Part shown: positions 19,834-23,023 of the stretch, in pieces
Layout: each line of letters begins with the position of its first letter
How positions within the stretch are numbered: the first letter of the stretch is position 1
Virus record (IMG/VR): IMGVR_UViG_3300035675_000030
Span: 1 to 25,085 of that record
Source of the DNA: a virus
Lineage: Duplodnaviria; Caudoviricetes
DNA: 25,085 nucleotides
Strand: one strand, 5' to 3'
Translations under genes and position numbers: made by a program
Notes under the pieces: model-generated
Databases searched by the model: none
The model's input: the letters and a program-made list of their open reading frames with translations, nothing else
Told to the model about the DNA's origin: nothing

Positions 19834-19866
19834 AACCTCTGTTTCGGCAGGGGTTTTTTATTTTTA
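19834..19866 (+). terminator. Intrinsic terminator ending the late operon
   Basis: AACCTCTGT-TTCG-GCAGGGGTT stem with UUCG loop and a long T-run. Confidence 0.85.
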
Positions 19867-20894: not shown

Positions 20895-21025
20895 AAAAAA
20901 GAATGAAGAAACGCAGAAATCTAACAAGGTTTAGACACCAACCATTGACGGTAAGGAATATGAGAGTAGAAAAATACTGGAAAAGAAAATTAATAAAAAT
21001 TTGGATAAACAACGAGTTTGATTAA
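20891..21025 (+). CDS. Highly basic micro-protein, 44 aa (not in ORF track)
   Basis: MKKRMKKRRNLTRFRHQPLTVRNMRVEKYWKRKLIKIWINNEFD; ATGA overlap with the upstream stop. Confidence 0.5.
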   Translation: MKKRMKKRRNLTRFRHQPLTVRNMRVEKYWKRKLIKIWINNEFD

Positions 21026-21044
21026 ATAATTATTTGTATATTTG
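21017..21044 (+). promoter_or_regulatory. Bacteroidota primary-sigma-type promoter
   Basis: TATATTTG (21037-21044) matches TAnnTTTG. An upstream TTTG lies at 21017-21020, but the 16-nt spacer is short. Confidence 0.55.
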
Positions 21045-21047
21045 TAT

Positions 21048-21140
21048 TCGAGTTCATCCTACATTATAAACTCGATAAGGTATTATTGACCCTTTGAATG
21101 AATGTGAGGTAGGATGCACAGGATTTCAAGGGGTTTTTTT
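21048..21140 (+). ncRNA. Candidate structured leader or small RNA: two hairpins with complementary loops, the second ending as a terminator
   Basis: Stem 1 TCGAGTT/AACTCGA with loop CATCCTAC. Stem 2 GACCCTTTGAA/TTCAAGGGGTT plus TGTG/CACA with loop GTAGGATG, then a T-run. Confidence 0.65.
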
Positions 21141-21160
21141 ATTTATTTAAATTTTAAGTT

Positions 21161-21400
21161 ATGGCAACTATTTATTTTAACAATGGAAAAGAAATTTGGA
21201 CTTCATTAACAATTGAAGAATTAAAAAAAATTAAAGTGGATTCAAAAGATTTTATAGAAATTAAAAGCGAACAAATTATTTGCGATGAATATAACCATAT
21301 TCAGGTTAAACATCAAAGAAATTATTTTATTAACTTAAATAATATCTCACACATTGAAGAAAATGTATCTAATTATTTAGGAGATGAGAAAAACATTTAA
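21161..21400 (+). CDS. Hypothetical protein (very AT-rich)
   Basis: 79 aa ending YFINLNNISHIEE; overlaps the initiator start. Confidence 0.6.
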   Translation: MATIYFNNGKEIWTSLTIEELKKIKVDSKDFIEIKSEQIICDEYNHIQVKHQRNYFINLNNISHIEENVSNYLGDEKNI

Positions 21401-22007
21401 TTTTTATCGTAGCTATTGGAACGTAGCAAATGAATTAAACGACAAAGACCGTTTAGCATTTTACGATGCTTTAATGAAGCGACAATTTACTGGTGTTGAA
21501 ACTGACTTAGAAGGTATGGTTAAATTCGCTTATCTTTCTCAAAAGCATTCTATTGATAGGCAAATTGAAGGTTACGAAAATAAAACTAAAGAACCTTTAC
21601 AAGACCCTACCGAAGGGGGTACGCAAGGGGGTGTTGAAGCCCCTACGGTACAATTAAAAGAGAAAGAGAAAGAGAAAGAAGAATCTATTATAGTTCCTTT
21701 TCAGGAACGTGTAAATAAATTTTTGAATTGGTTTAATGCTGAATTTACAAAACACGGGAAACCTCAAACCAAATTTAGAACCTTAAACAACCAAACGGAA
21801 AATAATTTAAAAAAGTTATTGGATAAATACACTACTGATGAATGGAGTTTAGCTTTTGAAAATATGATTAATAACGTTTGGGTAATAGAAAATAAAAATG
21901 CAACACCCGATCATTTTTTAAGACTTGCTAATTTTGAAAAATACTTAAATCAAGTTAAATTACAAGAAACAAAAACAGCTAAAAACACATTTGCATGGAA
22001 CAGATAG
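21384..22007 (+). CDS. Replication initiator-like protein (DUF6291-like N-terminus)
   Basis: FNFYRSYW..LAFYDAL N-domain, low-complexity linker plus KEKEKEKEE, C-domain ATPDHFLR..NFEKYLN typical of phage replisome organisers; upstream of the helicase. Confidence 0.75.
   Translation: MRKTFNFYRSYWNVANELNDKDRLAFYDALMKRQFTGVETDLEGMVKFAYLSQKHSIDRQIEGYENKTKEPLQDPTEGGTQGGVEAPTVQLKEKEKEKEESIIVPFQERVNKFLNWFNAEFTKHGKPQTKFRTLNNQTENNLKKLLDKYTTDEWSLAFENMINNVWVIENKNATPDHFLRLANFEKYLNQVKLQETKTAKNTFAWNR
21589..21648 (+). repeat. Five 12-bp iteron-like units, putative replication origin
   Basis: AAGAACCTTTAC, AAGACCCTACCG, AAGGGGGTACGC, AAGGGGGTGTTG, AAGCCCCTACGG. Confidence 0.6.
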
Positions 22008-23023
22008 ACGGATTTAAAATAACAGAAACTTCTGATGTTATAGGTAAGATATTTAAACACAGAGATAATTACCATAAAAAAGGAAAGTATCTTGGATTTG
22101 ATAATATGGATAAGCATTATTCAATGAGTTTAGGAAACTGTACTGATTGGACTGGATTTCCTATGAGTGGTAAAACACAAGTATTAATGGAATGCTTAAT
22201 GAATACTTCAAAGTTTTATGGTTGGAAGCATTTAGTATATTTTCCTGATGTTGGAAATAACATTGAAATATTAGCAGATTTATTACACAAAAAAACTGGA
22301 AAAAGTTTTGATCCTAATGCACAAAATACAATTACTGATGCTGAAATAACACGTGAAATGGATTGGGTATTGAATCATTTTAAAATATTAACACGAAAGA
22401 ACACAAAAGGAAAAATTACACCTAAGCAATTTTGGGAATTTGCCGTTAAATTAAAAAGTGAAGACGAATTACATACAGCCTCAATAGATAGCTGGAAAGA
22501 TATGAATCACGAATATGAAAAACACGGAGGTTATGCCCAATATTTAGAATATATTTTACCTTTGAGAAATTATTTAGCGGAAGAAAACAACTTGCATTTT
22601 CATACAATTATACACCCTAAGTTGACTGAAAAGGAAAACGGAAAAAGAAACGCACCAACACCACATGATTTAAAAGGTGGTAGTGAATGGTTTAATTCAG
22701 GTAAATGTATGATTACAGTACACCGCGAAAATCCAAGTACAAATGAAGTGCAAATTTATTTTAATAAGATTAAGCCACGATCGATAGGTGAAGTAGGGGA
22801 AATATTACTACGTTTTGATAAAAGTAAATTTGTGTATTACGTTGACGAATGGCAAGGCAATCAAAGTTTTAATAAGTACGCAGAAGAAAGAATTGAATCA
22901 AATCAATTTCCTAAACAACCCGAACAAATAATAGATAAAGACGGACAATCAGCCTTAAATTGGGGTGGTGGTTTAATGTCAGCAAGTGAAAAGATTAGAT
23001 TAGCAAACGAAAATCCATTTTAA
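21995..23023 (+). CDS. SF4 (DnaB/T7 gp4/Twinkle-like) replicative helicase, without a primase domain
   Basis: Walker A TGFPMSGKT, Walker B SIDSW, IIHP, DLKGGSEW and KIKP motifs. Confidence 0.8.
   Translation: MEQIDGFKITETSDVIGKIFKHRDNYHKKGKYLGFDNMDKHYSMSLGNCTDWTGFPMSGKTQVLMECLMNTSKFYGWKHLVYFPDVGNNIEILADLLHKKTGKSFDPNAQNTITDAEITREMDWVLNHFKILTRKNTKGKITPKQFWEFAVKLKSEDELHTASIDSWKDMNHEYEKHGGYAQYLEYILPLRNYLAEENNLHFHTIIHPKLTEKENGKRNAPTPHDLKGGSEWFNSGKCMITVHRENPSTNEVQIYFNKIKPRSIGEVGEILLRFDKSKFVYYVDEWQGNQSFNKYAEERIESNQFPKQPEQIIDKDGQSALNWGGGLMSASEKIRLANENPF

Follow-up and report, generated by a model that had tools for sequence, protein, structure and literature searches.

Ahead of the likely replication genes of a virus of the Caudoviricetes (IMG/VR record IMGVR_UViG_3300035675_000030), we found a leader made of two hairpins whose loops are complementary over eight nucleotides, and the comparison of its relatives indicates that this two-hairpin leader is a real RNA family, a phage leader RNA which is widespread and uncatalogued. 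It is likely a transcription attenuator placed at the head of a likely replication operon: in the model that we propose, the pairing of the two loops (the kiss) would block the completion of an intrinsic terminator. That the kiss promotes read-through, whatever the version of the mechanism, is probable, the direction being taken from analogy and from a ring argument given below. Our main reading is more specific, namely that by analogy the kiss would promote read-through with no outside trigger, as a race against the zipping of the terminator, and we give it a probability of roughly 0.4. It would mean that the replication genes stand behind an RNA brake in a large group of Bacteroidota-type phages in which neither a repressor nor an integrase is recognised, and that the design of a kiss into a terminator, of which the guanidine-IV riboswitch is so far the known case, extends to a probably ligand-free setting.

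The leader and its surroundings

The window, by which we mean the whole stretch of 25,085 nucleotides analysed, has every long ORF on its + strand. The terminase, tape measure, portal and lysis genes extend up to about 19.8 kb and small ORFs come after them; 3' of the leader stand a 79-aa ORF, a DUF6291 protein, a helicase-like gene, HNH, NinG and ERF (Table 1). The 79-aa ORF has no match in Pfam or PHROG, and in relatives its slot holds many unrelated ORFs of 54-88 aa. The DUF6291 protein is likely a replication initiator or a helicase loader, a label taken from its position and from the occupants of the same slot in relatives, which are DnaD-like, 'replication initiation' and primosomal PHROGs. 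Inside this initiator-like gene, at 21605-21681, one can notice G/C-rich repeats followed by GAGAAA repeats, which we presume may be the replication origin. Concerning the host, 79 of the 81 phage records with a relative of the helicase are Flavobacterium phages (the best one at about 45% identity), and the box preceding the leader is of the TAnnTTTG type, a Bacteroidota promoter box according to the available parts of PMC9723704 and PMC7366714; from these two facts we infer a Bacteroidota host. Five RNA runs were listed, with a best share of 0.05, and in the three that were compared the sole match was a 151-nt contig at 20686-20836 (two runs), which lies outside the leader.

Table 1. Features of the leader and of the genes following it, in coordinates of the window.
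Feature	Position	Strand	Remarks
Bacteroidota sigma-A -7 promoter box TATATTTG	21037-21044	+	TAnnTTTG
Hairpin 1	21048-21075	+	P1 = 21048-21054 with 21069-21075; 14-nt loop; starts where transcription is predicted to begin
Loop-1 kissing strand X, CATCCTAC	21055-21062	+	opens the 14-nt loop
Unpaired 3' part of loop 1, ATTATA	21063-21068	+	6 nt in 101/118; ATA end in 83/83
A/U-rich linker between the hairpins	21076-21087	+	11-14 nt across the family
Hairpin 2, terminator type	21088-21135	+	stem P2, internal loop, upper stem P3, 10-nt loop
P2	21088-21098 with 21125-21135	+	11-bp lower stem of the terminator
UGAA/GGAU internal loop of hairpin 2	21099-21102, 21121-21124	+	
P3	21103-21106 with 21117-21120	+	upper stem of hairpin 2
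Loop-2 kissing strand X', GTAGGATG	21109-21116	+	ends the 10-nt apical loop; unpaired AG ahead, its A invariant
U-tract (7 U, A, 3 U) of the predicted intrinsic terminator	21134-21144	+	seven T at 21134-21140
79-aa ORF	21161-21400	+	between the leader and the initiator-like gene; unrelated small ORFs or none in relatives
DUF6291 protein	21384-22007	+	Pfam PF19808
Replicative helicase-like gene	21995-23023	+	PHROG 239 and 18375 primase/helicase, E about 1e-10 to 1e-11

All the coordinates given by an earlier, sequence-only reading of this leader hold when sequence and fold are checked again, and so does its observation that the loop of hairpin 2 carries the exact reverse complement of the 8-mer in the loop of hairpin 1, making eight Watson-Crick (WC) pairs. 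In the 25-kb window the exact 8-mer is found at these two loop sites only; three copies with one mismatch lie elsewhere, a number within chance. As the TAnnTTTG box spans -12 to -5 relative to +1 (available part of PMC9723704), the transcript is predicted to start near 21049, at the foot of hairpin 1. The terminated RNA would, by prediction, be about 91 nt long. The loop-1 8-mer begins 10 nt past the promoter box in 79 of 118 relatives, and the promoters of the family are A/T-rich upstream, without a conserved -33 TTTG. The stretch 21021-21047, which includes the promoter, has a 27-nt match (E 0.5) to an unannotated site in the Cellulophaga phages phi38:1 and phi40:1. The earlier claim that the initiator and helicase genes need read-through appears to be right, no TAnnTTTG being found on the + strand between 21045 and 21928.

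The leader is present once in the window, the next match to its model being a plain terminator at 16.7 bits. Its fold on the + strand is moderately unusual (z -2.2), and hairpin 2 alone has a z of -3.6. A simple terminator scan did not call hairpin 2, which probably reflects the 3-8 nt loop range of that scan. At 19834-19859, after the lysis genes, there is a plain intrinsic terminator with a UUCG loop and a stem base resembling that of hairpin 2; it has no kissing partner and makes a natural control. Between loops of the sizes observed, eight or more WC pairs arose in 170 of 100,000 shuffles, and in 32 of 50,000 random pairs of window segments. The 8-bp match at this single locus is unlikely by chance without being decisive for a genome-wide hunt, and it is the comparative evidence which is decisive.

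A family with covarying loops

In a first search of IMG/VR we looked for the exact pair of 8-mers with a free spacer of 30-60 nt. This gave 103 loci with 105 matches, 59 of which span 61-63 nt; these are mostly the leader described above (type I in what follows), ahead of various ORFs. Relatives of the initiator carry the same design with different loop letters. An unbiased test is given by a loop-blind pattern, in which promoter, internal loop and terminator foot are fixed while the loop letters are free: it listed at least 119 viral loci (we estimate about 400 in IMG/VR), and all 119 matches listed, representing 97 distinct sequences, have 6-10 WC pairs between their loops. For the 38 distinct loops among the matches listed, the mean number of WC pairs is 7.9 with the cognate loop, 4.1 with non-cognate loops and 3.9 after shuffling. 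The same pattern was run as a control on bacterial genomes, where it gave 87 loci, mostly chance matches. A filter on hairpin 2 is failed by 78 of them, which have 3-6 pairs (mostly 3-5), save one with 7 and one with 9, the last of these (L326) being probably a true member of the family; among the nine that pass, eight have 7-8 pairs. The true matches in bacterial genomes are on MAG contigs, under 10 kb where lengths are shown.

Covariation was measured in an alignment (A1) built by plain MAFFT from the window together with 45 of 48 representatives; those omitted are a sequence nearly identical to the window and two variants that are short. In A1 the kiss is 94% paired and has 97 two-sided changes, and its covariation score is 0.70, to be compared with 0.22 for the shuffled and at most 0.11 for the slid control. 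Kinship can inflate the shuffle control; the many independent codes make kinship an unlikely explanation. Two-sided changes affect six of six P1 pairs in A1 and five of five in A2, an alignment fitted to the model. Among homologous intergenic regions, a comparison which the sequence-only reading had proposed, the loop match is hence both conserved and covarying.

When the loci were parsed, 223 of them contained type I elements, 132 distinct ones, each having six or more loop-loop pairs. For 118 of them, those with a 10-nt loop, the kiss amounts to 944 cells, comprising 932 WC pairs, 4 G-U pairs and 8 mismatches, and at least 27 codes are present; this set is enriched for the window's own code, since the exact 8-mer search feeds into it. 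P2 of the same elements holds 177 G-U pairs in 1062 cells, which marks the leader as an RNA of the + strand. Six kiss pairs rank within the top 16 pairs by mutual information (MI), and no P1-P3 pair is within the top 34. Beyond the four helices the MI ranking reveals no tertiary covariation, the signals in the linker looking like alignment offsets. Six of the eight kiss pairs vary freely, and invariant in all 83 loop-blind elements are the AC of loop 1 (the last two kiss bases), the ATA at the end of loop 1, and the A and GT of loop 2; the 3' part of loop 1 likely makes tertiary contacts. The spacing from X to X' is 44-49 nt, and the U-tract has at least six T in 8 nt in 131 of the 132 elements. 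Seven type I loci (L403, L405, L407, L408, L410, L411 and L412) have an interrupted U-tract, perhaps a weaker terminator. In distant relatives of the initiator (L112, L113, L118 and L126) the leaders are longer or otherwise shaped, with complementary boxes, judged by eye, in the 5' hairpin and the terminator loop.

One could suppose that the 8-mers are inverted half-sites of a DNA operator, or a chance match beside an ordinary terminator. A DNA inverted repeat would indeed be expected to have almost no G-U in the match, as is the case here, and the tight spacing would suit an operator as well. However, both half-sites always lie in the loops of covarying hairpins, the G-U pairs of P2 are strand-specific, and a given code can accompany as many as four initiator families; as to chance, the chance matches of our pattern have neither hairpin 2 nor the loop match. 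We regard this explanation as very improbable and as already largely refuted.

Other scaffolds in the same slot

The helicase has 80 relatives, of which 61 have at least 1100 nt upstream, many being near-duplicates. A leader precedes 60 of these 61: type I in 47, type II in 10 and type III in 3; in the other one (L399) no leader of any of these types was found upstream of the helicase relative. Type II has 6-nt loops, a 6-bp kiss and an AGUA/GAA internal loop, which we take to be a loop-E motif. About 280 stretches of IMG/VR match a loop-blind pattern of type II, roughly half of them being real: among the 120 loci listed, the 62 with terminator and upper stem all have 5-6 WC pairs, while the remaining 58 have mostly 2-4. 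Type III has no hairpin 1, a free 5' strand being complementary to loop 2. The presence of three scaffolds in one slot suggests that what counts is less a given pocket than the pairing as such.

For 77 loop-blind type I loci, an initiator-family ORF is among the first two downstream ORFs in 64 and the helicase lies within 1.2 kb downstream in 51. Most of the exceptions that were opened have an inserted cassette, the replication genes being further on. At one locus (L550, 1818-1913, genome G040) the genes behind a complete type I leader are a Met/Pro-rich ORF and others that are not replication genes. Tandem leaders with differing codes are found in L541 (G046:C1:19972-20063 and 22344-22437) and in L542 (G049); in G046 the pair brackets a three-gene cassette ahead of the initiator, and the second gene of this cassette is PAPS-reductase-like in a relative.

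Leaders are also exchanged between close relatives. On both flanks L334 shares 96-97% identity with the window, yet it has a type III leader starting from the exact end of the promoter box; over its positions 384-850 the leader, the small ORF and the N-terminal half of the initiator have been exchanged. L104 has kept type I, with another code and another small ORF.

A possible race between kiss and terminator

The mechanism that we propose would run as follows. RNA polymerase would start near 21049 and hairpin 1 would fold at once, exposing CAUCCUAC; later GUAGGAUG would leave the polymerase before the 3' strand of the terminator is free, so that the loops could pair first. Their pairing would close a ring through the short linker and the 5' strand of P2, and the 3' strand, held by the polymerase, could not easily wind round the 11-bp lower stem. 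Once the kiss is formed, the polymerase would pass the U-tract and transcribe the small ORF, the initiator and the helicase; should hairpin 2 zip first, the RNA of about 91 nt would be released. The fraction of read-through would then be the outcome of the race, set by the rates of elongation and pausing, with no separate RNA or ligand. The tight spacing of X and X' and the short linker fit this geometric constraint.

We folded prefixes of the leader with ViennaRNA, which has no pseudoknots, so that X:X' was treated as a nested helix displacing P1. X is about 85% unpaired in prefixes up to 21090 (it is only 51% unpaired in one prefix of the window, and less than 60% in 28 of 118 relatives). 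For prefixes ending between 21116 and 21128 the nested fold of lowest energy is the one with the X:X' helix, at -15 to -18 kcal/mol; the terminator takes over at full length only, at -23.0. P3 alone is worth -0.7 kcal/mol.

A precedent is given by the guanidine-IV riboswitch. According to the available parts of PMC7736828 and PMC11611296, the loop of its 5' hairpin kisses the loop of the terminator, which is proposed to hinder the complete terminator stem and to lead to read-through, and the kiss is favoured before the 3' strand of the terminator is made; how the kiss defeats the terminator is called unresolved in the same texts. The phage leaders would allow tests of this very point, for across the three scaffolds nature supplies dozens of loop pairs which are largely orthogonal. 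Short attenuators that are orthogonal to each other would moreover serve as genetic parts in Bacteroidota. With this precedent, the RNA switch imagined in the sequence-only reading is plausible as far as the control of read-through in cis is concerned, whereas its trans part is without support (see the next section).

Several points speak against the attenuator as we propose it. The invariant bases cluster at one end of the kiss, beyond the needs of a plain helix. For a brake without trigger, no signal is evident; in a starved host slower elongation would give more read-through, the opposite of what a phage would seem to need; and the analogy itself may be turned against it, for the guanidine-IV kiss loses to the growing terminator unless the ligand is bound (same parts of PMC7736828 and PMC11611296).

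It could be imagined that the same switch is tipped by a small molecule, an ion or a protein at the invariant junction or internal loop; the leader would then be an orphan riboswitch or a protein-dependent antiterminator reporting the fitness of the host for replication. The invariant AC and ATA of loop 1 and A and GT of loop 2 (83 of 83 each) are not imposed by the search patterns, the architecture is that of a validated riboswitch, and several unrelated protein families stand downstream. Invariant A's can, however, be ordinary minor-groove contacts, most of the kiss pairs (six of the eight) vary freely, the site of type I can be occupied by types II and III, whose junctions differ, and an 8-bp helix made of WC pairs only (mean -11.7 kcal/mol as a duplex) may need no ligand. 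We hold a ligand or protein as rather doubtful.

A further explanation is that the kiss does not oppose termination at all: it would compact the released RNA of about 91 nt, or the 5' end of the mRNA, into a nuclease-resistant form having a job of its own (decoy, small RNA or platform for binding the polymerase), with a terminator that is leaky or overridden by a phage protein. We find it doubtful. The terminator fold is indeed the most stable nested fold at full length (-23.0), the six spare bases of loop 1 and the linker may let the kiss and the full hairpin 2 coexist once the 3' end is free, and the internal loops are strongly conserved. Yet the strict link to the replication operon, which was found without using the downstream genes, points to a role in cis, and at 19834-19859 in the same phage a plain UUCG-capped terminator with a similar stem base suffices.

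The loop code and a proposed action in trans

One of the two options of the sequence-only reading was a pairing in trans by the accumulated terminated RNA. Spelled out, this RNA would pair with a loop of the nascent leader, prevent the cis kiss without making the ring, and force termination, and this negative feedback would provide copy control or the exclusion of phages having the same 8-mer. We consider such a model improbable, although it agrees with several facts: the 118 elements have their 27 or more codes nearly without G-U; these codes are largely orthogonal, non-cognate pairs coming within 2 kcal/mol of cognate ones in only 10 of 702 cases; one leader copy is present in 45 of 47 contigs, and in both contigs with two leaders the codes differ; the leader has been exchanged between near-identical phages; and replication genes would be controlled, as with P4 CI and Inc RNA. 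Against it, differing codes in tandem leaders are expected, since two random elements share a code with a chance of 0.084. On leave-one-helix-out trees, drawn without a recombination model for the 84 of 132 elements fitting a fixed-length frame, the kiss has a mean of 5.9 WC swaps per pair, compared with 10.4 for P1, 12.0 for P3 and 6.9 for P2. The same code is kept in 96% of 83 near-identical scaffold pairs, with no sign of diversifying selection. Moreover, the released RNA would have both loops locked in cis, and the relatives give no sign of temperate life, the true matches in bacterial genomes being on short MAG contigs. Ordinary compensatory drift would explain the diversity of the codes.

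The idea that the 8-mer is a selected specificity code finds no support: the kiss pairs swap less than those of P1 and P3, an antisense promoter was not found, and the 8-mer has no copy besides the two in the loops. Antisense promoters were sought as minus-strand TAnnTTTG only: within 132 nt downstream they occur in 6 of 109 cases, versus 19 of 109 for a control stretch, and the window has none between 21146 and 21769. Repressor-free immunity or copy control in trans is unsupported as well, the complete relatives yielding no integrase, CI-type repressor or ParA. More precisely, no tyrosine integrase was found in five of five near-complete relatives, and three complete genomes, scanned for 126 of their 167 listed ORFs (in a listing that excludes ORFs over 450 aa), gave neither an integrase nor an S24 repressor nor ParA. 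One 69-aa HTH of Cro/C1 type is present in genome G001.

A related form of the idea, which we find hardly probable, is a counting device of one gene and without antisense, where the same sense RNA would be both switch and inhibitor: the nascent leader would kiss itself and read through, and released leaders of the same or of a co-infecting genome would steal the loop in trans and force termination. If true, an 8-letter loop code would let a phage without repressor sense its copy number and exclude its kin.

Catalogues and known systems

The sequence-only reading could assign no Rfam family to the leader; the scan it called for indeed gives no match in the window at the gathering threshold. With Rfam 15 nothing lies over the leader at E up to 10, and 20 related loci, which include all three types, gave no match either. 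When the region was compared with phage and plasmid records by BLASTN, only short matches came out, with E of 0.1 or worse. No description of the motif was found in the literature searched, whose coverage is thin for subscription journals. In a catalogue of structured RNAs of viruses (PMC10690425), short motifs of the leader have no match in supplement files 3-6, the tables of which possibly hold no sequences, and the leader may be among its 10,006 unnamed candidates. The available parts of PMC5737381, PMC7157519 and PMC8704770 hold no match to the leader.

The closest mechanism is that of the guanidine-IV riboswitch (GGAM-1 or mepA motif), with which the phage leader shares, going by the available part of its descriptions, a 5' leader of about 90-95 nt, a 5' hairpin loop pairing with the loop of the terminator hairpin, and an intrinsic terminator (stem and U-tract, predicted here) as a part of the motif. 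It is located before sugE or other transporter genes, whereas the phage leader is before replication genes, with no transporter among 18 cluster representatives. Compared by description, the guanidine-IV pocket has highly conserved loop nucleotides, while in the phage leader six of eight kiss pairs vary and A.GU (loop 2) and AC..ATA (loop 1) are invariant. The phage leader differs also by its three scaffolds, its Bacteroidota-type promoter and having no ligand assigned.

The systems to which the sequence-only reading had likened the leader (IncI, P4 CI and C4) each fail on defining features. C4 of P1/P7 can be grouped with P4 CI as a likeness, the phage leader having short complementary boxes too. 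The CI RNA of satellite phage P4, with its seqA and seqC, shares with our leader premature termination ahead of replication genes and such boxes (available part of PMC4825925). However, P4 CI and P1 C4 are separate small RNAs with two target sites, up- and downstream, whereas the phage leader has neither a separate processed RNA nor a second target, its 8-mer occurring only twice; and theirs is an immunity, while no lysogeny genes were found in the relatives of our phage. In IncI1/IncB repZ a leader pseudoknot likewise switches on a replication initiator; its target is translation, and an antisense RNA as well as a leader peptide are required (available part of PMC8053102). In the phage leader, by contrast, the pairing is directed at a terminator loop lying 44 nt upstream of the first start codon, and a conserved antisense promoter is absent. 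The cATT zipper attenuator of plasmid pLS20 is also a leader attenuator carried by a mobile element, and there too the terminator region is paired by a hairpin region lying upstream of it; its leader has 456 nt, versus about 90 nt in the phage (available part of PMC13401043). We rejected a zipper-like extension of the kiss: the first position beyond it pairs in only 8 of 100 elements (the fractions at positions 1-5 beyond the kiss are 0.08, 0.31, 0.59, 0.62 and 0.07), so the pairing is confined to the loops.

Finally we must note that a variant exists in a cultured phage and is therefore testable. The Flavobacterium phage FCV-1.01 (MT431535.1; L414, 1649-1740) has an unannotated type III-like leader, with a model score of only 18.5 bits. 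Hairpin 1 is absent from it, and a 5' GTAGAGAG is complementary to CTCTCTAC in the loop of a terminator-like hairpin; a small ORF and then an HTH_36 protein are found downstream.
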